45,037 nucleotides of DNA from Cyanophora paradoxa CCMP329 (GCA_004431415.1 QPMI01000700.1:1-45037); one strand, 5' to 3'. Positions 1 through 20,709 are shown, counted from the first letter of the stretch. Program-made: numbers and translations. Notes: generated by a model from the letters alone, not told the origin.

Positions 1-100
1 CTTCTCCAAGTTTGCCGAGTTCATGTTCGCTATGACCGTGCCCTTACCCGAGTCGTGCTCTGGGATAGGAACAGGAACTGGTAGTATTGAGTACAGAGCC

Positions 101-502
101 CTACGAGCTAGAGCTGCTATCGCCCGAGTCCAGGCGCGCCTTCTTGGCCTTGGAGCGGCGGAGGCGGGAGACGTACTGCAGGCGCAGGTTGCGCACGAGC
201 AGCTCGCCGGCCGTGGTGCCCGGCAGCCCGGGAACCGCGTCCGTGGGCAGCAGCTGGCCCTCGCGTATCGCCTTGTACGTCTTGCGCTTGTTGAATGCAA
301 CCTTCTCCGTATCTCCGTGCCGTCGTACTGGGACGTGGGAAGGAACTGCGAGGCGGTCTTGGGACTTCTAGAACCAGCGCGCGCTTGGCCTTCTTGATGG
401 AGACTGCGTTCGCGCGCTCCAGCTTGACGCCGGGCTCCAGGGGGTAGCGGCGACTTCGTTCTCAGCGAAGGAGACACGGGGGGAAGAGCCGCCGCGGGGC
501 AT
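101..502 (-). CDS. Hypothetical basic protein, ~135 aa after restoring three single-base homopolymer deletions
   Basis: ATG at 502, TAG at 101-103. Adding one base in three C/G runs gives a continuous GC3-rich frame: MPRGGSSPRVSFAENEVRRYPLEPGVKLERANAVSIKKAKRALVLEVPKTASQFLPTSQYDGTEIREKVAFNKRKTYKAIREGQLL...RRSKAKKARLDSGDSSSSS*. Absent from the ORF track. Upstream TATTTTC motif present. Confidence 0.55.
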
Positions 503-518
503 GGTTCGCTCGCTTTAC

Positions 519-844
519 CTAGCGTTTAGAAAATAGCGCGCGAGCCTCGAGCACCAGGAGACCCGCCACAACCGCTGCGGCGATGACCACGGCAACCTCG
601 AGCCGGTGCCAGAAGCGCTCGGCCCGTCCGTGAGCGCGCGGCCCGCCTTGCCCGGTGCGGTGAGTGCGGAGCCCAGCGCGCCCGCCGCAATGTCCGCCCA
701 CGCGCCTCCGTCGCCGCGCAGCACGTTCTCGCGGTTCTTCATCTCGACTGTGGCGCCGATCGCGGCGTTGAGCTCACCGAACTGCAGCCGCGGCGCGCCC
801 TTGGGCCCAAAGGTCTTGGTGAGCAGCGCGTCGAGCCAGCTCAT
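519..844 (-). CDS. Small hypothetical protein with C-terminal transmembrane segment (one frameshift near 625)
   Basis: ORF 515..844 (MSWLDALLTKTFGPKG...) joins the frame of ORF 519..701 (ERFWHRLEVAVVIAAAVVAGLLVLEARALFSKR*) if one G is added to a G run. Upstream GATTTTC motif. Confidence 0.6.
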
Positions 845-873
845 CTCTACTAGCTAGCGCTTCGAAAATCTAT

Positions 874-1368
874 CTAAATCGCGAAGCCGCGCAGGTACCA
901 GACCATCAGGAGCGAGCCGCCGAGCGCCACGAGCAGCGGCAGGTGCCCGTCGACCGCGCGCCGCGCCTCCCAGGCCCAGATCTCCTGGCGGCTCAGCTCG
1001 TTCGCGCCGTCGAAGTAAGCGCTGACGCCGTACTCGCGCGCGGGCGCAGGCTGCGACCAGAGGCCGGCGCTCAGGCGCGGCGCCCCCTCCCTCTGCTGCT
1101 GCGAGGCCAGCGCCGCCGTCGCCGCGTGCGCCGCCTCCCTCTGGCCCGGGGCGATCGCTACGAGGGGCAGGGGCCCGACGCCGCGGCCCTTGCCCGCAGC
1201 CTTAATCGACTTCAGCGCCGGCGGCGCCGGGTCCGCGCCCCTTATCTTAGGCCCCTCCGCCCCGCCGCCGGCCTTCGCCCCGCCCCCCTTGGCAGCCTCG
1301 CCGATCTTGCTGCAGCGCGAGTCCGATTTGAACACCGTACACAACAGCTTCTCTACGGCGTTGGGCAT
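874..1368 (-). CDS. Hypothetical 164-aa protein with hydrophobic C-terminal anchor
   Basis: Intact ATG ORF with GC3-rich codons ending LPLLVALGGSLLMVWYLRGFAI. Upstream AATTTTC motif; tightly packed against its neighbours. Confidence 0.65.
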   Translation of the reverse strand: MPNAVEKLLCTVFKSDSRCSKIGEAAKGGGAKAGGGAEGPKIRGADPAPPALKSIKAAGKGRGVGPLPLVAIAPGQREAAHAATAALASQQQREGAPRLSAGLWSQPAPAREYGVSAYFDGANELSRQEIWAWEARRAVDGHLPLLVALGGSLLMVWYLRGFAI

Positions 1369-1475
1369 GTTTAGACGTGTACAGACGATGAAGAAAATTT
1401 AAATGCCAACGGACTCAAAAGGACGTCGCAACTTTGAAAAGGGAAAGGGGGGAATGGAACTTTGAAAAGGGAGAG

Positions 1476-1667
1476 TTAACGCCCCGCGGGGCGCATGCCG
1501 GCCGTCGCCATCGAGACGGAGCCGGGGGCGTAGAGGGTCTTGGCGGCGTAGCCGAAGCCCACGCCGATGACGGCCGAGGCGGTGGGCGTGCCGCCGAGGA
1601 GCCAGGTGAGGGTCGCGGCGAGGGCTCCTAGCGAGTAATGCGGGGGATAGCTGTCAGCGAGGGCCAT
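1476..1667 (-). CDS. Hypothetical 63-aa hydrophobic (membrane) protein
   Basis: ATG ORF with two Gly/Ala-rich hydrophobic stretches (LGALAATLTWLLGG, AVIGVGFGYAA). Upstream TATTTTTTC motif. Confidence 0.55.
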   Translation of the reverse strand: MALADSYPPHYSLGALAATLTWLLGGTPTASAVIGVGFGYAAKTLYAPGSVSMATAGMRPAGR

Positions 1668-1715
1668 CGCGGGACCGAATTGGAAGGGGTTGAGAAAAAA
1701 TACCGCCTCGAGGCC

Positions 1716-2810
1716 TCAGTGGTGGAGGTGCCGGAAGCGCGCGTTGTCCTCGGCCTCCTCGCGCTCCGCCTGCTCCTCCGCCGCGTCGATCTCCGCCCGC
1801 GAGGCCTCCAGCGTCGCCCGCCGCGCGTAGGACTGCGGGACGGCCACGCGCCGGTAGGGCTGGGCGAGGGTCTTCGCCAGCCCCGCCGTCTCCGCCTCGA
1901 ACGCCCGCCAAGTCTCCGAGGCCTCCGCACCGGAGATCTGGCGGGCGCGGAATCCCGCCTCCAGCTCGGCGCGGAAGGCGAGGGTGCGCTGCAGGCGCTG
2001 GGCCCAGAGGGCCTGGCGCCGCGCCTCCGCCTCGCGTGCCTGGCGCGCCGCCAGCGCCTGCCGCTCGGCCTCCTGCTGGGCCCCGAAGCCCTGGATCGCG
2101 GAGAGGACGGCGCCGGGGCCGGGGACGGGCGCGGCGAAGGCGGCGGGGACGGGGCTGCGGTCGGCTAGGGAGAAGGGGACGGGGCTGGGGCCGGCGCTGC
2201 TGGAGGGGGCGGCCGAGGCCGAGCGCGCGCGCGAGCCCGAGGCCGAGCGCGAGCCCGAGCTGCCGTAGCTGCTGGGGCCGGCGCCGCCGTCCACGGGGCT
2301 GCTGCGGAAGCTGCCCGCGGGGGAGGCGCCCTCGCCCTGGCCCGAGGGTCAGGAGGGGGCGGGGGAAGGGGGGTACGAGGGGGCGCGGGTGCGGGGCCGG
2401 ACCTGGCGCGGCAGCATCTCGTCGATGCGCTGCTGGCCGGCGTGCTGCTGGGCGCGGGGGCGAACGACGGGGGCGGGCGGGACGAAGGCGGGGGCGAGTT
2501 GCGGGGCGCGTTGCCCTGCCCCTGTTCGAGCCTTGACGGGAAGGGCCGTTCTCCGGGTCCGCCGGCTCGAAGAACTGGATGGCCTGCAGCGCCGGCTGGC
2601 TCGCGCCGAGGGAGAGGGGGCCTTGGGGACGATGCCGCGGATGTAGGTCTCCCAGACGCCGCCGGCTTGTAGGAGAAGAGGCGGCACCTGGGGCCGAAGG
2701 CGGCGATGGTCTCGTCCAGCTCGCCGTTCTCGACGTCGCGGCGACGGCGGCGGAGGCGTCGGGGCCTCCGTGCGCGAGATGTACTCGCAGATGCCCGCCA
2801 CGCTCGTCAT
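1716..2810 (-). CDS. Hypothetical low-complexity/coiled-coil protein, several frameshifts
   Basis: Coding-like pieces in alternating frames from ATG 2810 (MTSVAGICEYISRT..; DVENGELDETIAAFGPRCRLFSYK; GVWETYIRGIVPKAP; ALQAIQFFEPADPENG) to a helical C-terminus (QQEAERQALAARQAREAEARRQALWAQRLQR...HLHH*). Confidence 0.5.
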
Positions 2811-3015
2811 GCCGCCCTCCGTCTCGAGCCGACGAGGTAGGTGGTGGGTCGACGACGCAGTGGGTGATGATGAAGCGGGTGAGGGTGCAGGAGGCCGTCT
2901 CCTGCCAGAAGGCAGGCGCTTCTCCCGCAGCCACACGGCTCGAAGGACTGGATGCACGCCGCCTCGCCGTCCGCGAGCGCGTGGATGATCTTCCAGGCGT
3001 AGTAGGTTGGCAGGA

Positions 3016-3066
3016 TGTGACCACCTCTTGGAAACTTCTAATAGAACTTTTCATGAGGTGTACACA
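3016..3066. promoter_or_regulatory. 51-bp imperfect palindrome, copy 1 (candidate origin / recombination / operator site)
   Basis: TGTGACCACCTCTTGGAAACTTCTA-A-TAGAACTTTTCATGAGGTGTACACA, symmetric about 3041 (16 of 19 Watson-Crick pairs in the core 3022-3060). An extra TGTGACCACCTC half-site lies at 3074-3085. Confidence 0.8.
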
Positions 3067-3156
3067 AGATCCTTGTGACCACCTCAAGGAAAAGAGGCAA
3101 ATCTCAGATACCAGGTACCAAGAGCACCTCCTTTTCTTAAGGTGCATGTGCATGTG

Positions 3157-3159
<3 letters not shown>

Positions 3160-3251
<92 letters not shown>
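3160..3251 (+). repeat. (GA)n microsatellite, ~46 units
   Basis: Uninterrupted GA run. Confidence 0.99.
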
Positions 3252-3254
<3 letters not shown>

Positions 3255-3274
3255 AGAGCTCAAGTCAAAGTCTC

Positions 3275-3546
3275 TGGACATCTGGACATTTGGACATTTG
3301 GACATTTGGACATTTGGACATAACATGTACCCCGCTATCTATAGCTAGCGCTAGCTCATCGTAGGCCTAGGCCTTGGCCTTGGACATCTGGACATCTGGA
3401 CACTTGGACATTTGGACATTTGGACATAACATGTACCCCGCTATCTATAGCTAGCGCTAGCTCATCGTAGGCCTAGGCCTTGGCCTTGGACATCTGGACA
3501 CTTGGACACTTGGACACTTGGACATTTGGACATAACACGTACCCCC
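3275..3546 (+). repeat. 106-bp tandem repeat (2.5 copies), each with six TGGACA(T/C)N 8-mers and short palindromes
   Basis: TAACAYGTACCCC recurs at 3321, 3427 and 3533. There are 18 8-mers in three blocks; spacers contain the palindromes AGCTAGCGCTAGCT and AGGCCTAGGCCT. Confidence 0.95.
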
Positions 3547-4377
3547 CTCCACAGTCTTCCCCCTTAGCTTCGAGCTGCTCTTGAACTAGCGAGCCCGCCG
3601 TCGCTCCGGCACAGCAGGCGATAGAGCAGGTAGCTCTGAGCTCGTCGGCATCCTCGCCGGTCGCGCCGCCGCCGTCCTTGGGGTGCTCCGGACCGCGGAC
3701 CGCCATTTCGCGCCACGGTGGGCTCCCGAAGCCCGGAAAGTTGCTACGGAAAGCTCTGTTGACCGGCGATCGCACTGTGCCGCCGCAGAGTCGCCCGCCG
3801 CCCGCCGTGAAGTTCGAGGGCAAGTCGCGCACTGACCTTCGCTTCTCTCCGCCTCGCAGAGGTGCACGCCGGTCCTGCGACTCAGAGCCTCATCCTAGAA
3901 GCATTTGAAGCCGACCTGCGCTGCGCCCGCTCACCCTTGTCGCGGGATTTTGAATTCGGCGGGGCGCAGGTTGCCGGGGAGCCCAGACGATCCAGGCTGC
4001 GAGCGCGCCATCCGCTTTGCATCTCTGTCGACTAAGAAGGTGCATACGAGTCGCTGGTCCGCCGGGGCGCGGGATTTGCCTCGCTTTCTCGCAACCACAG
4101 CCAAGCGCCAGCTCCATGCTCACCTGCTGTGTGCGCAGCGAGGCCGATCGCATGGAGCATCACGCGCGCAGTGCATTCGTTCGCGTCTCTCCCGTCTCCG
4201 CTACTTCCGAGTCGAAGTGCGCACCCATGCTGCAATCCCGCCCAGCGCCCGCTGCTCACGGGGCCCGGATCCGTGCAGCAGAACGCCGGCTCGGCGACGC
4301 TCACTCCATCTCGAAGGCATCTCAACGACGCTGAAGGCCCGAGCTCGGCGACGCTGCGCCCGACCTCGTCGCCCGCC

Positions 4378-7334
4378 ATGAACTCGTCCCGTCGCCTTCG
4401 GAGCCCTCGCTGCAGGGAAGCCCGCGGCCCTGCAGCGAATGAGCCGGATTCAGACAAGCCGTGCGCACTTTCAGACTGCGCGATCGCTTTCCCCTCTTCT
4501 CTCCCTTTTCCCTTCTTTTCATTCATGCGCCGGCGGCTCACTTCTGGCCCGTGCACGCAGGCTTGGGAGCCCTTGTACGCCTCGAACGGCCTGAAGCAGG
4601 CGGTCGCCCTGACGGAGAAGGTCCTCGCGATGCACCTCTCGCGCCCCAACAGCAACTGCGACTTTGCCTCCGGGCCCGTCCGCTTGCATGCCATCGAGTC
4701 CACTAGGGGCGAGTGTGTCCGCCGCCCCCAGGCGACCATCGGCATCTCAATGTTCAAGTTCAAGACGACCATGGATGTACTTGGTATGCGCGCAGCTTTG
4801 TCTTTCTCGTCTCTATCTAGATTATTCCTTCCGTGAACTTGCTCTCAATCTCACTGGCACCTGTGCCGCAGATGAGAATGAGCGCTCTTACGAAGTCGTC
4901 ATCAGCGTGGTATTCAGCTACCGCCAGCCGAAGCGCTTCACTCTCCTCCTCGCCGCCAAGCCCAACGGGGTGACTTTGAAGTATCGCATCGAAGATGTCT
5001 GCCCCAAGGAGGCCTGTGAGCACGCACTGATGGACTGGGCTGCACGCCTCGACCCCGCAGTCTTGCTGGGCACCTCGTCCCAGGTCCGCGCCTCCTTCTC
5101 TCATTCCAGTCTTCTAAAGCGGCCGCTCTGGACTTGCACCCACTCGCGACTGATTTTCGTCTCCTTCTCCTAGGGTGCAGTCTCAAAGATTGCAGAGGCC
5201 CCGCCCCTCGAGCCACTTTCACCGGAGGCCAAGGATGCCCTTCTTGCTGGGTCCATCGAGACTGGCGTCCTGGCAGCAGTGCGTCAGCAGTTGGACGACG
5301 AGTTCATGGCATTTGACCCCCGCCGGGGCGAGCTGTTGGTGAGCTCTAGATCTCATTGCAATCCACTGGTTCTCCTTGATACCATCTGACTGCGAGCTCC
5401 CTCCTTTCGCCCAGCAACTTGCTTTCACATCCGATCGGCGCCCGACGTACAGCTACACGCCCTTTAACGGCCTCAAGGGCCACGCAACGGTCCGAGCGTA
5501 CGCCAACCGTATTCTCGACCGGATTGCATTCGCCATCAAGGAGGATGAAGACGCACGCGAGCAGGAGCCCAAGCGGCCCCGCATCATGTCATCCAGCCGC
5601 AGCAAGTCAGACGTGTTTGCTTCCAGCCGCGCCGAGCTGCTCGACAAGATCGTCGCCTCCATCCTGCATGACCCCGCTTGGGTTAAGCAGGTCAAGACCA
5701 CCGATCTCATTGTCAGCTTCGACGACGTCGCAGTGAACATCCGCGACCCCGGAGTGCTATACCGCTACAACGGCGCCAACCCTCCCTCTGTCAAGGAGAT
5801 TCCGTCCACGTGGGAGAACCCCGAGTCGTTCTCCTATGGCTATCGGTGAGCCGGCTGTTTGCATCGCTGTCCGCTGCTCTTTCCCTTTATCTCTTCCTCT
5901 CTAAGGCGCGCGCGGCCCGGGCAGTTACTTTCCCAACTGCTTGGCGGACGCAACGGGCCGTCAGTGCGACTACAACAGCTTGGTGACGCGCACTGCCCGC
6001 TGGACAAGATCTGCCGAGATCAAGGGATCAATGATGTGCTCTTCTACGGCGTGTGTGGCATCGGCATTGCCAGTGATCCCGAGCAGGATGCGGTGCGCTG
6101 ACATCCTGCGCTTTGCGCTCTATTCAACTTCATCTCTATTCGACCTCCCATTCAGCTCTCTAACGTTTGGCGCCTTCAAAGATTGTGCACCTCGAGGGGC
6201 TCGGCAACACCGGCAAGAGCACACTGCAGGCAGTCGTCGAGAAGCTCATCACCTGCGAGACCCCATCGAAGGACTCCTCGCCGCAGTTCATGCTTTCTTG
6301 CATCTACGACTGCCACGAGCCTGTCTCTGCCCTCTTCATTCACGAGGTCGGCAACTCCACGCAGCTCAAGGTCCGTTCGCCAGAGTCAATGATTATTCTT
6401 CAGCTCACGCCCTCTTGCCCTGCCAGTCGCTGCAGTCAAAGATCAAGACGATTAGCGGACACGATCCAGTCAGCATCGAGGCAAAGAACAAGCCCCCGCT
6501 CAAGGCCCGCCTGCGGGCCGTTGTCTGGACGGCTGGCAACCCCACGGGCCTCTCTCAGGTGTGCCTTCCGTCACGGGCATCTTGGAGTGAGCTTTGAGCT
6601 CACGTTTTTGCTGCTCAGCACCTGTACAAGGACTACGGGGGCGATATGAGCCGCCGACTTCTGTACCTTCCCTTCAACAAGCCGGTGATTCCGACCTTAA
6701 GATCTCTTTTCGACTCTCTGTGTTCTAGATCTAGATCTTGGCCGCAGGTCGAAGCCGTAACCAACTTCAAGGAGAGCTGCCTGCAGCCCTACAACCTGGG
6801 TGTAGCGCTTGCCAAGATGATCGCTGCCCGTCACGTCCTTCTCACTTTCATTGACGGTGGCGGCCTCCAGAAGCTCTACGATCCCTTGTCGTCGGCCTCC
6901 ATCATTTACTGCCCCGAGATCGCACTTCGTCGCAGCGAGATCCTCAGCACGCAGCAGCAGGCGAGTGAGCGCAACAGCACTGTCACATCGATTGAGCACT
7001 GCTGGAGTCAGGTGCTGTTCTTAGCCTTTGCTCATTCTGTGTTCACGTTCCAACGTTCTGCAATTGCCCGCAGTGGATCCGCACCGTTGCCACAGGGCAG
7101 CCGAGTGACACGGCAGATCAGCCCGCTCTCCAGGAGCACTTCAAGCAGTACCTGCGTACGTTCAACTACTTCAATGATAAAGATATCGACGCCGCCGCAA
7201 AGAAGTACGTGCTCAACTCCACCGTCACGGCGATCAAGGGCGCCTACGAGGCAGCGGGCATTGTCTGGTGGAAGCGGGGCGGGAACACAGGGCGCGTTTG
7301 GCGGGCTTTTGGCGCCAAGATCCCGACGGCCTAG
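4378..7334 (+). CDS. D5-like superfamily-3 helicase (primase-helicase type), intron-rich; true start uncertain and possibly upstream (~3.7-4.3 kb)
   Basis: Inferred GT-AG introns 4461-4560, 4784-4871, 5084-5173, 5339-5414, 5846-5924, 6093-6181, 6371-6426, 6559-6618, 6685-6747, 7012-7073. The spliced product has Walker A (HLEGLGNTGKST), Walker B (LFIHE), B' (IKTISGHDPVSIEAKNK), motif C (VVWTAGN) and an Arg finger (KDYGGDMSRRLLYLPF), preceded by a D5_N-like LIVSFDDVAVNI. Stop TAG at 7332-7334. One C-run frameshift near 5996 and probably another before 4460. Confidence 0.85.
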
Positions 7335-7483
7335 GTCAAGCAAATTTCGTTGTATCGCCTTGTAACTTACGGTGCAGATGTAACAGAATGCAGCACACTC
7401 GCAGAGCAAATGTTTAGATGTTCAGATGTTCTCACTTGTCTTAATTGTCAGATGTACACATTGGACCGTTTCTCGAACACTAA

Positions 7484-10400
7484 TCACTTGCCTACCTCCA
7501 TTGCGCTCGTTCTAACTGTGCCAGCAAGTGCCACCTCCGAGCCAAGTGCCACCTCCGAGCGCAGGCGCACGAGATCGTAGCACTTCACGAAAACCCGGTA
7601 CGCGTCTGCATAGTGAAGGACTGACGTTTGCGCCGCTGAGCCGCCTGCCTGCCCAGCACATCGCTCATCGTATCCTCCACGCATGCAAGGTACTTGCGCT
7701 TTCTGTTCTGCATAGCTCCTCCATCACGCACGCTTGAGATCTTCCTGACGCCCCTGCATGTCTCGAACAGGTACCTTGCAACTCGCCGGGCCTGCATTGC
7801 GATGGCCTTTACCGACTTGTACTTGGCGGGATCGAAGCGCGGGCACTTCGGGTCCACACTCTGCAGCTCGCGGTAAGCCGCTCGGCCTTGCTCTGACGTC
7901 AGCCCGCGACACAGCTCATCGACCCACAGGACGTCCTTTGCTCGGTCGCCCTCGCCCGTCCAGCCAATCGCCCTGAATACGGCCACGAGCTTCGAGAGGT
8001 AAAGCCGGTCGCTCGACGGCTCGATTCCTTCGATGCTGTGACCGTCCAGGAGCACCAGGCTCGCCTTCGCCTTGAGGCCAAGAGAGTAGCGCGACTCCCA
8101 CATCCACTCGACGTCCCCGCGGTGAGCGTCGCAGGGTCCAGCACCATGAAATCCGCGATTGACTGCCTCGCCAGGGAGAGGACGGTCTCGAACGCCGTGC
8201 CCTCGAGTGAGCCATCCCAGGACTCGGCAAGGGCCAAGATCTGCGGCACGTCCATCAGTGCGGCCTTGTGCACCCAGTCGATCTCCATTTTCTGTCGCTC
8301 TTGCTCTTTCCTTGCCGAGGGCTTGCCCTGATCCGCCGTGGTCCACAGGTTCTCGGACGGGCCGACGGAGAGCTGGCGGAGCGGGCGGCGACGCTCAGGT
8401 GCCTGGAGGGCATGGAGGCGCGCCTGTCTCCGTTGTGCTCGGCTTTCAGATCCAGGTACGTCTCCACTGCGGGCGCCTCGGTGGGTGGCCGCGGCCGCCG
8501 GGGCCGCCGCCTGACTCGCGCCAGTGTCGTGCAGCATCCGAGGCGCGAACGGGCGTCACGCTGCACCGCCGAACGGACAGCAGCAGGTGCTCGCCCCCTT
8601 CACCCCTGTGCCTTCGCCCTGGCCCCGCAGCCGCCTCACACGGAACAGCAGCTGTACGATGTCGTCGGCCTCCAGTAGGGGCATCTTGGCGTCGAAGATT
8701 CCGTAGATCTTGTCGAAGTGCGCATCCGAGAAGTCCACGCCCGCCCCCAAGGCCGACGTCGCAATGACTGCGTCGCAGGTCTTGTAGCCGCCCTCCTCGG
8801 CCAGATCGAGCTTCTTCACGCGGGCCCTGCCGTCGTCGCTGTAATCAAACTGTTTGTCTTTTGCCTGCCCTATGACGATTCCGATTGTGAAGGGCCCGGG
8901 GGCGCAGGCTGGGTCTCGCTCCAAGATCTCGGTGGCCTGCTTCTTAAGTGCGCTTGCCAATGCCTGCGCCCGGCCTGTCGTCTCGACGATGATCATGGCG
9001 CGCAGGCCGCCGGGGCGGCACCTTGACATCAGGTCACGCTCGACGGCGGTGGGGCTGTCGGACAGGCGTATCCGCCAGTCGCAGGTCCGCCGGTGGTTGA
9101 AGAGGAGGGCGAGCCGAGCCCCTGTGGACGCCGCCGACTTGCCGAGGAAAGCAAGGTCCGTGGGCCTCACGTAGCCGTCCAGCGCGACGATTTCCTGTGC
9201 GCCCTCGATTCCCGCCAGAGACGGGCGCAACGCAGGTTGCGGGGGAGGCTCCGCGCCCCAAGCCCGCCGGCCACGGGCTCCAAGGTCGAGCTCAAGGTGA
9301 AGTGCCGCATGAGGGAGGAGAGCTCGTCGAGCACGACCAGGAGGCCCCCGCCGCCGCCCTCGCCCAGGTCCTCGAGCCCCTGCCAGTCGTCCTGCACCTT
9401 GTGAGCCGAATCGATCGTGCAGATGACGACCTGGATCCTCGGATCGCGGAAGCCCCACGTCCCGTGAGCGCTCTGGGGGTCCTTGGGGCGCCAGACGTCC
9501 GAGTAGAGCACGGCGACCGAGGGGAGGGAGGCTTCGTCAAGGCGGCGCTTGAGGTCGCGAGAGAAGGCCCGACGGCAGGTGAGCACGAGGATTTTGCGCT
9601 TCAACTCGAGCGCCGGCCGTACATAGGCTTCAATCAGCGCCTTCGTCTTCCCCGTGTTGAGCCCGCTGCAGATGACGTCGATCCGACGGAGCGCCCCGGG
9701 ATCGGGCCTCAGCTCGCCAAAGGTCGACTCCAGCAGCTCGGGGCTCAGGTACCGCTCGTCCACCTCTCTCACCGCAAATGGGGCATGGCCGACGGATCGC
9801 AGGGCAAGGAGGAGGGACGGAAGGGCGGTGTCGAGGGAGATGCCGCGCCGAAGGTCCGTTGCGTAGGCTTTCGTCTTGGCGCCGCCTCCTCCATCTGAGA
9901 GCCTCGCCTGCAGGCTGAAGTTCCAGATCTGGAGCTCCAGGCGGGAGTTCGGACGCGCCTCCACCTCGAGCTCGAAGGCCAGCGACCCGTCGGGCTCCGT
10001 CCGCGCCTGCAGCACCCTCGACGGCTCCAGGCGCAGGTGCACTCCGAGCTCATCCCCTGCCCTCTCCAGCTCGCCCGAACCGATGTGCTGCCCCGCAGGA
10101 GAGCGAGGGCCCGCTCTAGGATCTCGCCGGCCGCCTGGTCTCCAGCGACCTGTACCCCAGCGGCCTGCTCTGTACCCCTCTCACCGGCGCCTTGTTCCTC
10201 TGTCCCTCCATCGGTCCCTCTCCGCTGGCCCGCCGCCTCCGTCCCTTCTTCGGGCAAGTCGTCAAAGAAGTCCGCGGGCAGATCTTCCAAGAAGTTCGCA
10301 GGCAGGCCCACAGCGGGAGCCCCTTTAGCTCGGCGCAGGCTTACCCCCCCGTCAGGCTCGATGCAGAGGCGGAGCTCCGACCCAGGCGCGAGGCCGCCGA

Positions 10401-10821
10401 AGAGCCAAGAGAAGATGGTGGAGGCCTCGGCGCCCTGCAGAACGAAGTGCACGCTCTGTCCATCCTCCAGCTCGCGGGAGAAGCTGACGCCCCCCGTCCG
10501 GCCCACGACAGCCTTCGCGGCATCGCAAGCCGACTCGCCGGGCGCAACCTGGCAAGGATTCACGCCCGGGGCGTTGCTTAGAGCGTAGACTACCCCCATC
10601 GCAGGCGACCAGGCCTTGGAGACCGAGACGAACGGGAAGCATGCAAAGAGATCCTCTTCCTCGGCATCTAGATCTGCCTCCTCGGCGAAGGGCAGCTCGT
10701 CTAGCAAGTTGACGTGCATAATGTTCGTTTTGATTTCGCAGTTGATATGCATGAGTGCTTCAGAAAAAGTCGAGTGCAGCACAACCGACGGCCTGGCGGG
10801 CAGGAGGGGTTGGGTGATCAC
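7484..10821 (-). CDS. UL9-like replication origin-binding protein (SF2 helicase), split by frameshifts; start codon uncertain (GTG 10821, ATG 10752 or 10718)
   Basis: Motifs in order across ORFs 9769..10821, 9167..10042, 8556..9458, 7899..8537, 7585..8346 and 7484..7684: I (VICSGLNTGKTKALI), Ia (ILVLTCRRAFS), VVICTIDSAHKV, II (LLVVLDELSSLMRHF), III (IVALDG), V (AVIATSALGAGVDFSDAHFDKIYG), VI (IVQLLFRVRRL). These match the herpesvirus UL9/origin-binding family pattern. Shifts at ~10092 and ~9210 are single-base homopolymer losses. No introns evident. Confidence 0.85.
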
Positions 10822-10904
10822 AGCCCTGCTAGGGGGTACTCAATATCATGGCATCTAGAGGGCCGGGGTACAGGCAAGAGCTCGAGCTCTGCAGACTTGC
10901 GGGA

Positions 10905-10955
10905 TGTGACCACCTCTTGGAAACTTCTATTAGAACTTTTCACGAGGTGGACACA
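10905..10955. promoter_or_regulatory. 51-bp imperfect palindrome, copy 2
   Basis: 10902-10956 matches 3013-3067 at 52 of 55 nt, same orientation, 7,889 bp apart. Overlaps the stop codon of the HNH-like ORF. Confidence 0.8.
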
Positions 10956-11542
10956 ACATGTACAGCTGGGCGACTTGCAGAGTGCACATCCTTCGCTTCA
11001 GCTATCTTGTGCGCCTTTGCTATCGCATCATGAGCGGCAAGGCCGTACTCTATCACTGCCGGTTGGCCTGGGCGAAAAGAGACGCGCCAGTAGCGGCTTT
11101 CCTTTGATTCTGCAGACAGCTCGTCAATCATTGCTTGGACTTGGCTCTGTTCGTAGGCTCGCTTCCTCCTCTTTGTCAGACACTTGCCTTTGTTGCTTGG
11201 AAGCTTGTCGCCTGCCACAGGAACCGCCCCAAGCCGACCTCCACAGTCCATGAGCCGTAGATTCTCCCTGCGCAAGTCCAGCTTGCACCCGCTGATGCTG
11301 TCGACGCGCCAGTCGTCGTTGGGCAGGCCGAGGGGGTACCCAAATAGAAAATGATGAGCATAGGCCACATTCCCGTCTGGCGATACTGTGTACGGCCAGC
11401 TCTGTCCATCCGCAGAGGCTACTCGCCATTGGTACATCCAGAGCGCTGGTGCCCGTCGCTTGTCTACTGTGAAGCTCGTGTAGCCCCCGTTTGGGAGAAG
11501 GGCGAAGATAAAAGCTGCACCCCAATCAAATGATTCAGACAT
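10940..11542 (-). CDS. HNH homing-endonuclease-like protein (HNH_3 type), catalytic residues degenerate
   Basis: Intact 200-aa ORF. FTVD...YQW...Y...YAHHFLFG..P..WRVDSISGCKLDLRRENLR follows the phage/viral pattern HR....VDHIdGnkLDNRreNLR, but with H>S and N>L. Basic C-terminal region. Confidence 0.7.
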   Translation of the reverse strand: MSESFDWGAAFIFALLPNGGYTSFTVDKRRAPALWMYQWRVASADGQSWPYTVSPDGNVAYAHHFLFGYPLGLPNDDWRVDSISGCKLDLRRENLRLMDCGGRLGAVPVAGDKLPSNKGKCLTKRRKRAYEQSQVQAMIDELSAESKESRYWRVSFRPGQPAVIEYGLAAHDAIAKAHKIAEAKDVHSASRPAVHVVSTS

Positions 11543-11954
11543 ATTGCAAATGATGCCGCTGGCTAGCGCTGCCGCACTTGAAGTGCTGCTTCAAGCTAAG
11601 CTCACTTTGCCCTAGGCTCAGAAAATGTTGGGCCGAATCAGAAGCTGGCCCGACCGAGAGGGGTACAGCACTTAGTTAGCACCCCAGTGGAGTCAGCCCC
11701 CACGGGGCCCCAGAGGGGTAAGGCAGTCTGTTAGCAGCTGTGCTTGTTGGTGTTCGCGAGGCGCGAGGGGTACGCTGACTGTTGCTCCCCGCATAGGTTA
11801 GTGCTAGCCCCCCCCCTGTTAGTGTCGGGTGTACGAGATCGCAATATAACACTCAAATCTCCGTGATGCGTGTCTCACGCAAACCTCCGAGGGTTAACAA
11901 TGGATTCATAAAGCTCGAGAGCTGGCGGTTCGCGGATTCCAGGTCGACGCCCTC

Positions 11955-12288
11955 ATATATATTCCATGGGAAATGTCGAGATTCGAGGAGATAATGGGAA
12001 TAATGTCAAAACCGGGCCCCGGCTCATCTCAGCAGAATTTCGCCAGAATCTTCGTGATTCTCGAGATTGTGCGCGAATTTCGGAGGAAATGTCAAAACCG
12101 GAAACCGGCGTGGCCCGAATTCTCGCCGGAATCTCACCAGAATTTCGCCAGAATTCGAATATCCGTGATTCTCGAGATTGTGCGCGAATTTCGGGGGAAA
12201 TTTCAAAACCGGAAACCGGCGTGGCCCCGAATTCTCGCCGGAGTCTCTCCAAAATTCCGCCAGAATATTCGTGATTCTCGAGATTGTG
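11955..12288 (+). repeat. 334-bp dispersed repeat, copy 1 (probable transposon terminus with ~110-bp subrepeats)
   Basis: Matches 19155-19488 with one difference seen (12202). Begins at a (TA)n run; GTGATTCTCGAGATTGTG recurs at ~12054, 12165 and 12271. Confidence 0.9.
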
Positions 12289-13134
12289 TCCCCTGGGTCT
12301 TGGTGCCGCCCTCTTCGTCGGGCCCGAGGGTGCCCCCAGCGCCACCCCGCCCCCTCCATCCCCGCCGCCTCCTCCTGGGCGCGCGGGCGCCGACTCTGCT
12401 GCGCGTGCACGCGCCGACTCTGGGCCATTCATGGCCATCTCCCACTATAGCTAGTAGAATGGGGCAGGAAGTGACACTGTCCTGACAATATTTAATGTAA
12501 ATAGTGTCAGATTAAAAGTGTCGGCCGGCCTGACACTACTTGGAGCGGGGCTTCTCTTCTAGTGATCTACAGCAGTCACTGAGTCTCCTACTGCACTAAA
12601 CAAGAACTAACGAACTAACGAACAAAATGAACGAGGGAGGAGTGATCAGAGAGGGGCACACATATTACAGACGTCGACAGGACAAGTATTGAATTGCACT
12701 GCAGCGGGCCACGAACGGAAAGCGACCGGCCGCGGGCCGAGCTCAGGATCAACGCGAGCAGCTTCGAATTCGCGAGCACTGGCCATGGGGACCTGGCCGG
12801 GGCCCTCCGCAGGACCCGCCCCGCTGCGCATGCTCGGGGCCCCCAGAGGCGAGGCGCCAGCAGCGGGTCGACCCGCGGCCGCGCGGGGCTGCCGGCGCCG
12901 GGGAAGGCCGCGCGGGGCCGCGCGCCAGGAAGGCCGCCGGGGGCGGGCGGCGGGGCGCGGGGCGAGGATGGTGGGGCGTCGACGTCGGTGGCGAACGAAG
13001 GGGGTGGACTCCGGGAGGGGGTCTGCGGGACGGGCGGGTGGGCGGGGCGGGCGGGGCCCGAGAAGCCAAGGAGGAGGCGGACGTGGGTGAAGGAGCAGGG
13101 CGGGGGGGCGCGGGTTGGGGCGGGGCCGGGGCGG

Positions 13135-15130
13135 TCAGGGCGGGAGGAAGAAAGTGTCGTCGAGGGAGACCACCTCGCCCCGCACCTGCCGCCCCGCCCT
13201 CGGCCCGAGAGGCGGGGGCGGGGGCGGGGCCGGCGCGCGCCCGCGTGTGGTTGTGCCGCAGGAAGGTCGCCAGCTCGGCGACCAGGCGCCCGATCTGCAG
13301 CGCGGAGCGGGGCGCTCGGCGGGCGGGGCGGGGGCGGGGGGGCGGCGGACGTTGCTTGAGAAGGTGACGACGGAGGCGCCGCACGTCGCCAGCGCCACCA
13401 CGTCCACCATCGCCGCCTGCCCGCCCCGCCCCGCCTCGCCCGCGGCCCCGCGGAGGGGCGCGGGGGGCCACCTTCCACTCGCGCGTGCGCGTCCCGCCCC
13501 TCCGCCGCTCCGCAGGTGGCTCGCGTGGTCGAAGACCTGCCCCGCCGCCCTGAGACGCGGCTGGCCATGGCCGGCGGGGCCCCACCCACCGCGCGGTCCT
13601 TGTCGGGGGCGTGGAGGAAGGTGTAGCGCGGCCCGTACGCCCCCGCCTCCTCCCGCAGCACCGCTGCCTCGTCTGCCCCCGCCCCTCGCCCCCCGGCCCC
13701 CGGAGGGGGGCGTGGGGGCAGGCGGACCCGTTGCGACGAAGAAAAGGGTCGTGTTGAGGGCGCGGAGGAACGGCTCCGCCCGCTCCACGTACTGGCCGGG
13801 CCGCCCCCCGGTCGGCCCCGCCCGCGGGGGCGCAGCGGGCGCCGCACCCGGGCCAGCGGCAGCGGCCTCGCCTCCGACCTCTTGTCCTGCCGCCTGCCCC
13901 GCCCGCTCGGCGGCGGCGGGCGTGGGGCGCAGGGGCGGGGCGGGGCGGACCGGACGTGGATGGAGACGCAGGGGGCGCCGGGGGCGAGGCCGGCGGCGCG
14001 CAGGCCCTCCTCGAGCCAGGCCGCGCCCCGCGCGTTGGAGCGCAGCAGGAAGGCGACGGCCTGCCGCGCGTGCGAGTGAGGGGCGCCCGCGCGGGTCGCT
14101 CGCCCGGCCTTCAAGGCGCGCCTGGGCGCGGGCCCACTCGGGGCCCCACTTCTCGAAGCCCGGGGCCGCGCCTCGCCGGGGGCCGCCACGGAGCGCGCGA
14201 GCGCCGCGTCGCTCCACGCCGCGAAGTCGTAGTAGAGGACCGTCTTGTTCGCCTGCGCCCCGCCGCCGGCTCGCCCGAGGCGGGGGGCGGGTGGGCCGGA
14301 GCGCGGCGCGCCTCGTGCTTCCCGAGCGATATGGGCGCCGCCCCGCTCTGCAGGTCCCCAAGGTCCGAGAGGCTGCCCCGCGCCGGCGCGTGAGGCGGGC
14401 TGGGGGAGGTGCGCCGCGCCGCCGCGTCGGCGCGTCGGCGCACGAGCAGGTGGAGAGCGGGAGCATGCGGCAGCCGAGGCAGCGGCACTCCTCCGCGCAG
14501 AGATCGTGGTCCGCGTACCTGCCGCCGGGCGCCCGCTCTCGGCTCGGGCGGGGAGGGGCAGACTCTGAGAGGGGCGGGCGCGACGCGCGCACAGCCAGTC
14601 CTGGTGCGGGCCACCAGGAGCACGCGCCGCGTCTTGAGCACGATCCCCAGAGCGAGGCCGTGTGGTGGAGCTCCGAGCCGAACCCTGCGCCCGCCGCCGG
14701 CCCGCGCACTAAACCCGGGGTCACGGCCGCAGGGCGTGCGGGATGCGGCGCGCGCGCCTGCGGCGCCGAAGCGAAAGAGGAGGATCTGAGACACGCGGGG
14801 GCTGCAATCCTCGCGGGCTCGGTACTGGTTCCGGTAGATGACGCGCTGCCAGGCTGGGGCGTCGGCACGGCCGCGGGTCGACGTCAGACGGCAAGACGCG
14901 GCCGCTGGGCGGCTCGCGATCGGGTCGACGCCGCAGCAGGTCGAACGCACCCGAAACTCACGCATCGCTTCCACCTGCTCGTCGTTCGCGCGTCCCGAGC
15001 CGAGGGCGAGCGAGTAGAGGAAGACGTATCGATATCGCGCACAGCGAGAATTAACTCGGGTGTATCTTAAGTAAAACCCGAGATACCATTTCAGTGAAAC
15101 GGACACGCAATGATGAGTCCGAAATACCAT
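13135..15130 (-). CDS. GT23-family alpha-1,6-fucosyltransferase-like (FUT8/NodZ-like) gene, multi-exon; 5' end uncertain
   Basis: Exon fragments in the expected order: IYRNQ..EDCS, GFGSELHH.ALALGIVLKTRRVLL, WLYADHDLC..C..C..LPLSTC, CVSIHVR/RQDKRSEA, YVERAE..LFFVAT/DE, MVDVVALATCGASVVTFSSN/IGRLVAEL, VVSLDDTFFLPP*. These are separated by C-rich GT-AG introns. Homopolymer frameshifts near 14612 and 14656. Confidence 0.8.
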
Positions 15131-16419
15131 TTAAGCTCATCTCGGCAGGCATCTAAGCTTATTTAAGCTTATCTCGCAGGCCTGTGACCGGAGCACCCGT
15201 CCACCCGCGCCGCGCGCCCACCAGCGAGCAGCCAATCTCGATTGCACTCACTCTCTAGCTAGCTAGCTATCAGATGCCTGAATGGTCTCGCTAGCTAGCT
15301 AGCTACACCTACATCGCGCCTCGTTGACCACCTCTTAGCTACTCGCAGCGCCATCCGCGCAGCGCCATCGCCCACTTGTCCAGCCGCCGGCGCCGCTCCA
15401 TGTGCTCCACCACATCCGCGGCGCCTCGTTGCGCGTGCCGCGGTGCCGCCAGGCGCCTGCACGCGCGAAGTCACGGCAAGGCGCGGCACCTAAGCTCAGC
15501 GCGGGACGGGAAGCTATAGGATGGACCGGCCTGGCGCGCTTGCTAGCAAGCATTGCTAGCTAACGTGGCGCAGCCTGGGGCGCGCGCGTACCTGGTGCCA
15601 GAGGGCCCGGCCCGCGGAACGCGGAACGCAGGCCTAGGGAGACCACCGAGGGCTCCTTTACGGAGTAGTCAGATCACTTAGCAAATCCGATGGCAGGACG
15701 GTGTCTTGGGCACTTGTTCGAACCTGCCATCGCGTCTCGGTCCAGAGCGTCGGAATTCGCGTCTCGGTGCTCGGAAGGGTTGCTGTCCGCCCTCAAGAGC
15801 TAGTTAGCCAGCGTGGCACCAAGTGGACGGCGGGAGACCGACCGCAGCGGGTGTCCGTTGAAGCCGATGAACGGAAGCCGATGACCAAGGACCTGCGCGT
15901 GAAGAGGACAGGAATGCGCTAGGAGTCGCGGTTCAATGCTGTTGCTCGGGCGGCGGCCAGCGAGGCCTGCGGGACGAAGACGTTGACGAAGGCTTTTTGG
16001 ATGTGTACCCTGTCCAATCGCGTACTGGTACCCCGGTCCCGCAGCTGCATTGCTGCTGCAACCATGTGCAATGGTCCCGCAGCTGCATCCCATCGTGCAG
16101 CTGAGCGCGTGCAAGCATACGTGTGCGAGGATGCCAAGGATGCCAAGAACTGGCGCGGCGCGATGTGGCGACAGGCAACCGATACACAGCCCGAGCCGCT
16201 AACGAGCGAAAAGCTTCGTGCGTGCCACTTCTAATACAATCTCTCCTATGAGTCCCCAGGGCTGAGTACTCCGTGGCGCAGGGAGACTCGGCGACGCAGC
16301 GCAGATGCTGACGCAGCGCGATCCATGCGGGACCCGCCCTTCCGGCAAGCGATATAAACAGTTCGTACCACTTTCAGGAGTTTTCTCATAGACAAGTCAT
16401 GGGGCCGCCGCATAGGGCC

Positions 16420-17745
16420 GAGGCGCGGCCAGGCGGAGCGGAGGCGCGCGCGGCGGCGCGGCTCGCCGGGCGGGGCGGAGGCGCGGCGGGCGGCGGCGAG
16501 GCTCACTGCACGCCGCGTAGGCGCGGCGGGCAGCGGCGCGGCTCTCTGGGCGGGGCGGAGGCGCGGCGCGCGGCGGGCATCTCGCCGGGCGGCGCGGGAG
16601 GCGCGGCGGGCGGCGACGAGGCTCGCCGCACGCGGCGGAGGCGCGAAGGGCGGCAGCGAGGCTCTCCGGGCGGGGCGGAGGCGCGGCGGGCGGCGACGAG
16701 GCTCGCCGCACGCGGCGGAGGCGCGACGGGCGGCGGCGAGGCTCTCTGGGCGGGGCGGAGGCGCGGCGCGCGGCGGGGCATCTCGCCGGGCGGCGCGGGA
16801 GGCGCGGCGGGCGGCGGCGAGGCTCTCCGGGCGGGGCGGAGGCGCGGCGGGCGGCGGGGCATCTCGCCGGGCGGCGCGGGAGGCGGCGCGGGCAGCGGCG
16901 CGGCTCTCCGGGCGGGGCGGAGGCGCGGCGCGCGGCGGGGCATCTCGCCGGGCGGTGCGGGAGGCGCGGCGGGCGGCGACGAGGCTCACTGCACGCGCGG
17001 GAGGCGCGGGCGGGCAGCGGCGCGGCTCTCCGGGTGGGGCAGAGGCGCGGCGGGCGGCGGGGCATCTCGCCGGGCGGCGCGGGAGGCGCGGCGGGCAGCG
17101 GCGCGGCTCTCCGGGCGGGGCGGAGGCGCGGCGGGCGGCGACGAGGCTCGCCGCACGCGGCGGAGGCGCGACGGGCGGCGGCGAGGCTCTCTGGGCGGGG
17201 CGGAGGCGCGGCGCGCGGCGGGGCATCTCGCCGGGCGGCGCGGGAGGCGCGGCGGGCGGCGGCGAGGCTCTCCGGGCGGGGCGGAGGCGCGGCGCGCGGC
17301 GGGGCATCTCGCCGGGCGGCGCGGGAGGCGGCGCGGGCAGCGGCGCGGCTCTCCGGGCGGGGCGGAGGCGCGGCGCGCGGCGGGGCATCTCGCCGGGCGG
17401 TGCGGGAGGCGCGGCGGGCGGCGACGAGGCTCACTGCACGCGCGGGAGGCGCGGCGGGCAGCGGCGCGGCTCTCCGGCGGGGCAGAGGCGCGGCGGGCGG
17501 CGGGGCATCTCGCCGGGCGGCGCGGGAGGCGCGGCGGGCAGCGGCGCGGCTCTCCGGGCGGGGCGGAGGCGCGGCGCGCGGCGCGGCATCTCGCCGGGCG
17601 GCGCGGGAGGCGCGGGCGGGCGGCGGCGAGGCTCGCCGCACGCGGCGGAGGCGCGGCGGGCGGAGGCGCGGCGGGCGGCGGCGCGGCGGGCGGCGGCGCG
17701 GCGGGCGGCGGCGCGGCGGCGCGGCGGGCGGCGGCGCGGCTCCCC
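16420..17745. repeat. Extremely GC-rich complex minisatellite (~40- and ~81-bp periodicities)
   Basis: Recurrent GGCATCTCGCCGGGCGGCGCGGGAGGCGCGGCGGG and GGCTCTCCGGGCGGGGCGGAGGCGCGGCG modules; open in many frames on both strands. Confidence 0.95.
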
Positions 17746-18544
17746 CGCTCAATGTGTGCAGAGATTTTGATGTGATTTTGACTAGCCTAGTAGCTCCAAA
17801 TTTGCTTTGTCTCGCATTGACACATGGCGTCATTTACGACATGTGTAGGGGACATGCATATATATGTGCACGTGATCATGAGGGCACGCCACAGCGAGGC
17901 GGGTTACGTGGCGGCACGGCGGTCGCGATCGCGGCGCCGGGGCATATATAGTGAGGCACGTGGGGGCACGGCAGCGGGGCATAGTACGAGTGCGCCGCGG
18001 CGGCATGGCCGTGGGGGCCCAGGGCCCGGGGCACGTGCACTATAGCTAGCTCTAGGCGGCACCTGGCCGTAATAATTTCCGAAATCTCGTTCCAACAAGC
18101 GATGCCCTGTTAATGAGTGACATATGAGGCTTGTTTAAGCCTTTATATGATGCAACACACATGCTGTTGTTGACTGGGAATGGAGTCACTCACCCGGTGA
18201 CCGACTCGGCGAGGTCAGTTTTCATGATGACAGAGTTGGATGAGGTCATGATCAAGATGCCATGATGTCAGGCTTGAGAGCTCGTCAGACGTTTTGGCGG
18301 GCTCTTACAGGTTAGATTACTTTGCGAGTCCCGACCTTTTTATATATCCTGAAAGTTCTTTTCATTGTCCTTCTTATGATGTACTCTGATGTAATAGAGC
18401 TCAATTCTATCCAAAGATATTCAGTTCGAAAAGAAACTTCTGTGGATGGCACATGGTGCCCTGGTCTCGCTCTTGCCATCCCACTAGGGCCCGGGCACCC
18501 CCGCATCTTATAGATTCTGAATCCATGTATACCACATGTTGTTT

Positions 18545-19030
18545 CTCAGGGCTTGGATGCAGGCGCGGGGCCCGCCCTGGGGAGGCCGGGCGTGGTTCCG
18601 CGGGCCCATCATTCTCTGATGACCCCCTCACTCCCTCGAGGCGATTCTTCTGTGTCGCGCCCGGCGGCCCCGGCTCACCTTATATAAACTGAATCCCAAT
18701 GTAATCGATGTTGGTTCTCAGGGCTCGGATGCAGGCGCGGGGCCCGCCCTGGGGAGGCCGGGCGTGGTTCCGCGGGCCCATCATTCTCAGGTGCCCCCCT
18801 CACTCCCTCGAGGCGATTCTTCTGTGTCGTGCCCGGCGTCCCCGGCTCACCTTATATAAACTGAATCCCAATGTAATAGATGTTATTTCGCAGGGCTCGG
18901 ATGCAGGCGCGGGGCCCGCCCTGGGGAGGACGGGCGTGGTTCCGCGGGCCCATCATTCTCAGGTGCCCCTCTCACTCCCTCGAGGCGATTCTTCGAATTC
19001 TGTGTCGCCCCCGGCGGCCCCGGCTCACCG
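18545..19030 (+). repeat. 172-bp tandem repeat, ~3 copies
   Basis: GGATGCAGGCGCGGGGCCCGCCCTGGGGAGG at ~18555, 18727 and 18899. Confidence 0.95.
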
Positions 19031-19154: not shown

Positions 19155-19550
19155 ATATATATTCCATGGGAAATGTCGAGATTCGAGGAGATAATGGGAA
19201 TAATGTCAAAACCGGGCCCCGGCTCATCTCAGCAGAATTTCGCCAGAATCTTCGTGATTCTCGAGATTGTGCGCGAATTTCGGAGGAAATGTCAAAACCG
19301 GAAACCGGCGTGGCCCGAATTCTCGCCGGAATCTCACCAGAATTTCGCCAGAATTCGAATATCCGTGATTCTCGAGATTGTGCGCGAATTTCGGGGGAAA
19401 TGTCAAAACCGGAAACCGGCGTGGCCCCGAATTCTCGCCGGAGTCTCTCCAAAATTCCGCCAGAATATTCGTGATTCTCGAGATTGTGCGCGAATTCGGG
19501 GGAAAATGTCAAAATCGGCAAACGCTTTGGCCCGGCCCCGAGTTCGAATT
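19155..19550 (+). repeat. 334-bp dispersed repeat, copy 2 (extends by a further subrepeat)
   Basis: Exactly 7,200 bp downstream of copy 1, same orientation. Confidence 0.9.
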
Positions 19551-20425: not shown

Positions 20426-20565
20426 GGCCAGGCCGCTGGCCAGTCGCTGAGTGCCCTATAGGCCTACTGTGACAGCCGCGAGGGCGTCCGCGAGGCTTCG
20501 CCGTACTTAGTGCTCCGCAGGAGCACGGATCTTGTTAACCAGCCAAACCCCGGAATTACTAAATA

Positions 20566-20630
20566 TTTTTTTTTTTTTTTTAAAGATCTACGGTGGGCGT
20601 GCCCACTCGTAGTACACAACGAGGATACAA
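20566..20630 (-). mobile_element. Very short retro-insertion (hairpin + poly-A tail on minus strand) inside the left TIR
   Basis: T16 run followed by the hairpin CTACG-GTGGGC-GT-GCCCAC-T-CGTAG; absent from the right TIR. No clear TSD. Confidence 0.55.
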
Positions 20631-20709
20631 GGGGTCTTAATTATTACCTGAATTACAGTATATACGTACTACGGTACTAGGCTAGAGCCGCTAGACTCGC
20701 CCGCTAGAG

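Follow-up and report, generated by a model that had tools for sequence, protein, structure and literature searches.

How replication starts in endogenous protist viruses that encode no polymerase is an open question, and the enzyme itself may have gone undetected (PMC10120064). A stretch of 45,037 nucleotides from the glaucophyte Cyanophora paradoxa CCMP329 (GCA_004431415.1, QPMI01000700.1:1-45037; hereafter the window) raises this question in a tangible form: a first-pass annotation, made from the sequence alone, had placed in its left part the self-contained replication cassette of a virus or plasmid-like element integrated in a protist genome. The host is indeed a protist-grade alga. Here we ask what this cassette is and where it ends. 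We observed genes for a superfamily 3 (SF3) helicase of the D5/P4 type and a superfamily 2 (SF2) helicase of the UL9/CyRepA1 type between direct repeats that each contain a palindrome; the gene pair recurs on other contigs, is bounded by a copy-number step on one side only, and is accompanied by a spliced RNA antisense to the SF2 gene. This replication module is real, multi-copy and undescribed. Examples of UL9-like and D5-like helicases exist in protist viruses that depend on the nucleus. We see an even chance that the helicase pair and the palindromes serve the replication of a larger element of viral descent, present in multiple copies in the C. paradoxa nuclear genome, with the 7.9 kb between the repeats as its left part.

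Origin-like palindromes flanking two helicase genes

The arrangement of two helicase genes between two 51-bp palindromes, as first described, was confirmed by sequence comparison. The palindromes are contained in two 55-bp repeats (3013-3067 and 10902-10956), which stand in direct orientation at an offset of 7,889 bp and are identical at 52 of 55 positions, with a longest identical run of 28 bp. Both palindromes are imperfect (20 of 25 arm pairs at 3016-3066 and 21 of 25 at 10905-10955), and their folding was more stable than that of shuffled sequences (z = -4.6 for the left and -7.1 for the right one; 0/200 shuffles equally stable). The 19-bp pattern of the arms had five matches in the window versus zero expected, namely both arms of both palindromes and an additional half-site at 3074-3092 on the plus strand (box C). 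At the left site, box A in forward orientation is followed by a core with 74% AT, box B in reverse orientation, seven bases, and box C in forward orientation. Box C is identical to box A, the left arm, at 17 of 19 positions and inverted relative to box B, with which it forms a hairpin of -15.8 kcal/mol (z = -5.9, 0/200 shuffles) that is more stable than the A-B hairpin at -11.1. The right repeat copy has boxes A and B and lacks box C. Farther right of the left site, a (GA)48 tract (3156-3251) and 2.6 copies of a 106-bp unit with about six 8-mers each (3275-3545) follow on the plus strand, "iteron-like" being merely a label for this 8-mer array. The extra half-site, the (GA)n tract and the array had all been noted before and were all present.

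A comparable arrangement exists at oriS of herpes simplex virus (HSV), where Boxes 1 and 2 stand as inverted copies on either side of an AT-rich spacer and Box 3, in opposite orientation to Box 1, forms a hairpin (PMC12543377; statements on published systems refer to the passages of the cited papers that deal with them). This three-box geometry was matched at the left site only, as the right site comprises two boxes, and the more stable B-C hairpin has its counterpart in the Box3-Box1 hairpin of HSV oriS* (PMC12543377). Another shared trait is the presence of more than one origin-like copy per element, whereas the box sequences are unrelated and measure 19 bp here versus 8 bp in HSV (PMC12543377). 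From the geometry, we infer that the left site is a candidate origin. Since each palindrome lies 5' of one gene, about 1.1 kb before the SF3 gene and 180 bp before the ATG of the UL9-like gene, a role as operators is also open.

Geminivirus-type nonanucleotides had no match, and neither an Rfam scan of positions 1-22500 nor a search of IMG/VR with the arm pattern returned one. A 22-bp pattern spanning the junction occurred in two metagenome contigs, where the similarity ended at 28 bp and was dismissed as chance. The central triplets of the two palindromes (3040-3042 and 10929-10931) are reverse complements of each other, like flip/flop hairpin isomers; this amounts to a single base and may be coincidental.

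The UL9-like helicase gene

The minus strand at 7484-10722 carries an intronless open reading frame (ORF) of 1,081 codons for a UL9/CyRepA1-type SF2 helicase, which is open when an X is placed at seven frame breaks. Six of these coincided with one-base differences from short-read contigs (among the rows listed) and the seventh was read through by copy P0007, so that the breaks look like assembly errors. Helicase motifs I, Ia, II, III, V and VI are present and flanked by an N-terminal region of ~350 aa and a C-terminal region of ~380 aa. PF02399, with a cut-off of 20 bits, scored 18-22.5 bits along a stretch of no more than 46-58 residues, corresponding to one motif, and the cut-off was passed in two of three copies (21.7 and 22.5 bits). 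The CyRepA1 model NF042913 aligned with residues 144-495 and covered both helicase lobes (E = 6e-15, 55.1 bits), hhalign with a CyRepA1 from Nostoc gave 94.5% and E = 8e-8, and Herpes_ori_bp and CyRepA1 clusters held the top Atlas ranks (0.97-0.98). Across the diverged UL9-like subfamilies, the motifs are well kept (Walker A 12/13, Walker B 8/9, motif V-VI 41/50 and 36/50) compared with an identity of ~42% in the C-terminal region.

The protein resembles UL9, the origin-binding protein (OBP) of HSV-1 (PMC12543377), in that its SF2 helicase part precedes a C-terminal region of comparable length and in the PF02399 match at the cut-off. Unlike UL9, it possesses the extra N-terminal region and, by eye, no RVKNL motif, and its binding to the boxes is a prediction. 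Its partner is an SF3 ring helicase instead of UL5/UL8/UL52, and no herpesvirus gene was found nearby. CyRepA1 (Slr7037) is the proven replication initiator of a cyanobacterial plasmid, and its locus is under antisense RNA control (PMC9978351). It provides the closest profile of the helicase part, and antisense RNA occurs at the initiator locus in both systems; however, the antisense RNA in C. paradoxa is spliced and overlaps the initiator ORF itself. Further differences are a score far below the family cut-off, the eukaryotic nuclear context, and the lack of DUF3854, a domain present in the Nostoc control and in none of the N-terminal 216 aa of the UL9-like protein, three diverged copies, and P0001-P0003.

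For the C-terminal region, no family or PDB sequence match was obtained, and the PDB contained no match to the UL9-like profile at E = 10. The Foldseek list for the structure model was meaningless (predicted local distance difference test, pLDDT, of 36; template modelling score, TM, of 0.03-0.13). A degenerate archaeo-eukaryotic primase (AEP) suspected by eye in the N-terminal region lacked profile support. Minus-strand introns in this gene were rejected as well: the EukProt models invent introns at the frame breaks, and the listed RNA joints sit on the other strand. Eight cyanobacterial loci were discarded as independent support because the query alignment already contained a CyRepA1.

The intron-rich SF3 helicase gene

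The D5/P4-type SF3 helicase gene (4152-7334, plus strand) encodes a protein of ~730-790 aa, the start being uncertain and set at 4152 by homology to gene model P0009. Frame correction had been suggested for both proteins. This held for the UL9-like gene, which needs frame repair only, whereas the SF3 gene is spliced and has at least 10 spliceosomal introns (GT..AG). Spliced SF3 contigs were found in X15, X16 and X19, three sequencing runs from three studies, none of which is on record as RNA. We treat them as RNA runs, since their contigs contain splice joints absent from the DNA run; at least four joints and several exon edges are visible in such RNA-type contigs. This number of introns points to long nuclear residence. 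In C. paradoxa, introns are generally short and dense (mean of 9.2 per gene and 86 bp; PMC6704402).

The protein matched PF19263 (DUF5906) with 29 bits (cut-off 27.6), TIGR01613, the P4 primase C-terminal model, with E = 1e-9, and PDB 7ola with E = 8.5e-4. All of these matches lie in the ATPase core, over which a satellite-phage primase can also be aligned. As in D5/P4 primase-helicases (SaPI PriRep, PDB 7ola; DUF5906; TIGR01613), Walker A, Walker B, motif C and the arginine-finger region are recognizable in the alignment. In contrast to these enzymes, the gene has its many introns, the identity is ~25-30% over the ATPase core only, and no primase domain was detected: no profile of AEP, Toprim or TVpol matched the N-terminus, where a diverged domain could escape. 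The structure model (pLDDT 31.5) was unusable. Direct comparison indicated that the SF3 and UL9-like helicases are mutually unrelated. Both are virus- or plasmid-type replication helicases rather than ordinary cellular ones, in agreement with the first-pass annotation.

Between copies, 15 synonymous and 19 nonsynonymous differences were counted in SF3 exons (34 exonic differences among 40 taken from 261), compared with a neutral expectation of 71-76% nonsynonymous changes (p = 0.007-0.04). This partial list weakly suggests that the SF3 exons may be under purifying selection.

Copies in the host genome and search for relatives

Protein searches returned gene models listed under C. paradoxa. UL9-like models reside on 13 contigs, eight with copies diverged to ~40-55% identity and five with copies close to the one in the window. 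In four of these five, the neighbouring gene number belongs to an SF3 model, so that the layout recurs as the first-pass annotation would lead one to expect; no SF3 model was returned for the fifth. The UL9-like genes form three subfamilies with identities down to ~40% and intact motifs, and one subfamily has members that are >99% alike on separate contigs.

A phmmer search of 1.84 billion representatives with the UL9-like protein yielded five matches, all from C. paradoxa, and no relative elsewhere passed the threshold. For the SF3 protein, the two matches among 7,994 candidates were both from C. paradoxa. Scans of IMG/VR recovered 0/68 and 0/63 candidates for the UL9-like and 0/89 for the SF3 protein. 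Full-text searches, which covered few subscription papers, returned no description of the helicase pair or the palindromes; supplementary element tables may list such loci. Endogenous viral DNA is plentiful in this genome, as at least 366 capsid genes of the Polinton-like virus (PLV) type (PMC10120064, supplement), PLVs (PMC12220804), adintovirus-like proteins (PMC8502044) and giant-virus segments (PMC12344493) have been reported.

A boundary on one side only

Contig depth served to locate the ends of the repeated unit; it is not equivalent to copy number, and the counts derived from it are rough. Single-copy depth in the DNA run X1 was taken as 51-64 (eight of nine short chance-matching contigs). 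Contigs inside the cassette had depths of 227-350, plus a diverged type at ~146-159, from which we estimate ~5 copies, in agreement with the five close contigs. Across the right palindrome, the depth was unchanged (341 inside, 333 and 344 outside) and continued through an HNH-like ORF to ~11950. On the other side, directly left of the left palindrome, contigs of X1 with 0-2 differences had depths of 1085-1325 and variants 1887-4194. The comparison with the flanks, which the first-pass annotation had proposed, thus gave a step at the left palindrome and none at the right one. The contig across the left junction (2975-3150) was unbroken in X1 (depth 273) and in run X2 (depth 225), and its cassette-level depth indicates that the palindrome is not a genome-wide repeat. 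One coding frame reaches the left palindrome with a GC content at third codon positions of 0.90 (31 codons), and this value falls to 0.39 (18 codons) inside the palindrome, which implies that the abundant element has one of its genes cut at this point. Together, the one-sided depth drop and the cut frame identify the left palindrome, at most ~10 bp from the copy-number step, as a boundary and the right palindrome as internal to an element of at least 9 kb. The cut gene does not continue in the right flank: a high-copy element lies on the left and a low-copy HNH-like gene on the right.

The neighbouring high-copy element (1-3005, minus strand) consists of small, packed, intronless ORFs, the last of which is cut at the left palindrome, and is PLV-like by context only. 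Its ORFs had no informative Pfam, PHROG or NCBIfam match, and two of them recovered 0/24 and 0/33 candidates from IMG/VR. Five or more small minus-strand ORFs with many sequence variants can be recognized in this region, and three GT..AG joints on the plus strand are antisense to them. Beyond the right palindrome, the HNH-endonuclease-like ORF (10940-11542, minus strand) had weak matches only (PF13392, E = 0.037; phrog_99, E = 0.012), and its stop codon is inside the palindrome. Two of 12 IMG/VR candidates matched it at E = 4e-4, a value computed against the candidates only and too weak to be used, and no listed ORF of at least 80 aa at L004 appeared HNH-like by eye. Other DNA starts with a 334-bp direct repeat at 11955-12288 (plus strand; second copy at 19155-19488), and one X19 contig tracks the window to 11962 and then continues into different sequence. 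Probably, the right end of the element is outside the window.

The first-pass annotation had also proposed that recombination between the direct repeats releases the cassette as a circle. Contigs over both sites were unbroken through the 28-bp identical core (10136-10942 in X1; 2975-3150 in X1 and X2). Such contigs should be interrupted if circles or empty sites were abundant, so there is no abundant recombinant junction. The end of the X1 contig 10136-10942 lies one base short of a position at which the repeats differ. Two loose ends at the right repeat (among those listed) sum up to the left-site contig (40+55+118 = 213 letters). No junction of a circle or empty site was seen in the contigs, from which rare forms drop out, and no primase, polymerase or recombinase was detected between the repeats.

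Antisense RNA over the UL9-like gene

A spliced RNA antisense to the UL9-like ORF (7335-10780, plus strand) spans this ORF completely and is contiguous in contigs with the last SF3 exon, which is a new observation. At least 14 splice joints inside the ORF were present in X15 and X16 (two studies) and none of these in X1. Among the 14 joints listed, 12 are GT..AG on the plus strand, one fits GC..AG, one falls at an assembly gap, and none fits the minus strand. The antisense contigs stop at 10772 and 10780, a weak hint that the RNA ends before the right palindrome. No long ORF exists in the antisense RNA within 7780-9574 (5-7 stops per frame in 1,093 nt, with one intron edge approximate), and a protein product was rejected on the basis of this segment. 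Since the left flank shows similar plus-strand splice joints and overlapping untranslated regions are common in C. paradoxa (PMC6704402), a regulatory role of the antisense RNA is only a possibility.

A proposed replication module of a larger element

The assignment of the pair and the palindromes to a larger virus-derived element, to which we give an even chance, is based on the types of the two helicases, the three-box geometry with its hairpin, the recurrence of the pair, the kept motifs, the weak sign of selection on SF3 exons and the continuous depth on the right side. It also draws on the fact that HNH genes and primase-less SF3 helicases belong to the cargo of PLVs (PMC12220804) and that capsid genes of the PLV type occur in the genome. 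Of the first-pass description as an origin, initiator and helicase module, the gene types and the oriS geometry at the left site stand, while the claim that it is self-contained is not supported; in the present reading, the 7.9 kb would be only the left part of the element. In such a module, dimers of the UL9-like protein would bind the inverted boxes A and B and melt the AT-rich core, and the B-C hairpin would hold them in place, as happens to OBP at oriS of HSV. Next, the SF3 protein, apparently without a primase domain, would be loaded as a ring helicase, and synthesis would depend on host primase and polymerase, as no gene for either was detected here. For the right palindrome, this scenario predicts a role as another origin, with two boxes, or as an operator before the initiator gene, not as an element end. 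The left junction would be the result of the origin inserting into, or recombining with, an element of higher abundance. The spliced transcript that reads through from the SF3 gene in culture covers the initiator gene in antisense and would tend to damp the initiator.

Several observations weigh against this assignment. The best profile match of the UL9-like protein is a bacterial plasmid Rep and falls below the cut-off (55 vs 200 bits); this ranking applies to the profile libraries covered, with no giant-virus library among them, and gives the nearest lineage only provisionally. The RVKNL motif of the UL9 C-terminal domain is missing by eye, and the HSV box sequence had no match on either strand in 1-22500. 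Pairing with an SF3 gene is seen at four of the five close copies, the selection test uses 34 of 261 differences, and all listed RNA joints over the initiator gene are antisense. PLV genes are mostly compact, which contrasts with the at least 10 introns of the SF3 gene. No capsid, minor capsid or packaging ATPase gene was found among 102/116 frames of at least 75 aa in 1-15300, although PLV capsids often escape Pfam, and no integrase, tyrosine recombinase or terminal inverted repeats were detected in the window. With none of these identified, "virus" rests on gene type and context.

Comparison with known elements yields a similarly mixed picture. Like the PLVs of C. paradoxa, the element is integrated in multiple copies, and PLVs can exchange their replication modules and possess HNH genes, SF2 replicases and SF3 helicases of the stand-alone kind (PMC10120064, PMC12220804). 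Unlike in PLVs, no capsid, ATPase, integrase or terminal inverted repeat was identified here. UL9 is absent from the main text of PMC12220804, and no SF2-plus-SF3 pair with origin-like palindromes appeared in the passages on PLVs in PMC10120064 and PMC12220804. Mriyaviruses and 'Ariadnavirales' are nucleus-dependent viruses of algae and protists without DNA polymerase that have a UL9-related SF2 or a D5-like SF3 helicase (PMC11253617; 10.64898/2026.08.29.747986). However, mriyaviruses encode either SF3 or SF2 plus an HUH endonuclease, and their UL9-like proteins have an intact AEP primase (PMC11253617), whereas here both helicases are present and neither HUH nor AEP was detected. General scans of the window, made without dedicated profiles, gave no match to an HUH endonuclease or to nucleocytoviricot core genes. 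Helitron-type rolling-circle transposons have an HUH Rep fused to a Pif1 helicase; a Helitron or other rolling-circle transposon was rejected, as no HUH Rep-Pif1 Pfam match was obtained. Transpovirons are capsid-less DNAs of ~7 kb that encode a helicase and are able to insert themselves into the genome of a virus, but they have a Tlr1-like superfamily 1 (SF1) helicase, a dead polymerase domain and terminal inverted repeats in place of the SF2 and SF3 helicases and direct repeats found here (PMC5499653).

The last comparison leads to an alternative that we regard as unlikely, namely a capsid-less, plasmid-like satellite of at least 9 kb that has the three-box palindrome as its left terminus, travels with abundant endogenous viruses after insertion into their DNA, in the manner of transpovirons. 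It would account for the position of the left palindrome within ~10 bp of the depth drop, where it cuts a coding frame, and for the lack of a visible structural gene in 9 kb at cassette depth. The single junction contig at cassette depth (273 in X1, 225 in X2) would mean that the target was common to most copies, but one insertion followed by amplification of the composite explains the common junction equally well. Moreover, the window includes neither the right end nor the remaining half of the cut ORF, the search for an integrase or recombinase was negative, the left element may not be a virus, and transpovirons themselves carry SF1 helicases and terminal inverted repeats (PMC5499653). A bolder and somewhat more doubtful proposal is a new class of capsid-less nuclear replicon, with a three-box origin, a CyRepA1-like initiator and an intronised primase-less SF3 helicase, which would be self-checked by spliced antisense read-through and spread into endogenous viruses.

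Less probable again is the explanation that the palindromes are promoter or operator sites of old viral genes that the host retained and that spread through segmental duplication, with no present replication. The palindrome upstream of each gene, the fully intronised SF3 gene spliced in three runs of three studies, and a left junction and right-flank depth common to the copies fit this scenario, which leaves box C and the hairpin unexplained. In addition, three subfamilies reaching ~40% identity with intact motifs, one of them >99% alike across contigs, have the look of an active mobile family, and the neighbourhood is mobile DNA, not host genes. Least probable of all, in our judgement, is the model of the first-pass annotation, in which the 7.9-kb cassette is self-contained and excises as a circle. 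The 55-bp direct repeats with their identical core do bracket exactly both genes, the product would retain one three-box site, and a rare circle is conceivable because Logan contigs lose rare variants. Nevertheless, the right repeat shows no depth step, no recombinase was detected, the flanks are unrelated, so that excision restores no target gene, and the unbroken contigs and loose ends described above speak against an abundant excised form.

C. paradoxa is a cultured, axenic alga, and the position of a candidate initiator next to a candidate origin that is short and defined makes binding and origin activity directly testable. If the left site works as an origin, the three-box design of oriS would reach far beyond herpesviruses, to an initiator that is nearer to cyanobacterial plasmid Reps by profile, and the sequence-defined origin could seed an episomal vector for glaucophytes. 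The coexistence of one intron-rich gene and one intronless gene under spliced antisense RNA may be a snapshot of a viral module adapting to the nucleus.

Other features of the window

The 334-bp direct repeats at 11955-12288 and 19155-19488 are 99.7% identical, consist of 111-bp units, begin after a (TA)n run and bracket 7.2 kb. This unit has the appearance of another insertion, younger than the helicase element and interrupting it. It contains a long, intronless, frame-broken and very GC-rich ORF on the minus strand (~12750-15130), which had no Pfam or NCBIfam match; by eye, its motifs resemble those of GT23/FUT8 fucosyltransferases. Tandem arrays at 16428-17740, 18536-19029 and 19672-20429, with very GC-rich units of 40 bp and 140 bp and a 172-bp unit, lie within or beside the second insertion. 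Nested inverted repeats at 20537-21161 (33 bp at 94% and 30 bp at 100%), accompanied by poly-T and poly-A runs, are possibly a miniature inverted-repeat transposable element or an element end. The remainder of the window (22530-45037) is occupied by ~63 copies of a 357-bp unit, by eye repeated cysteine-rich exons with introns, which probably represent one giant host gene for a surface protein.

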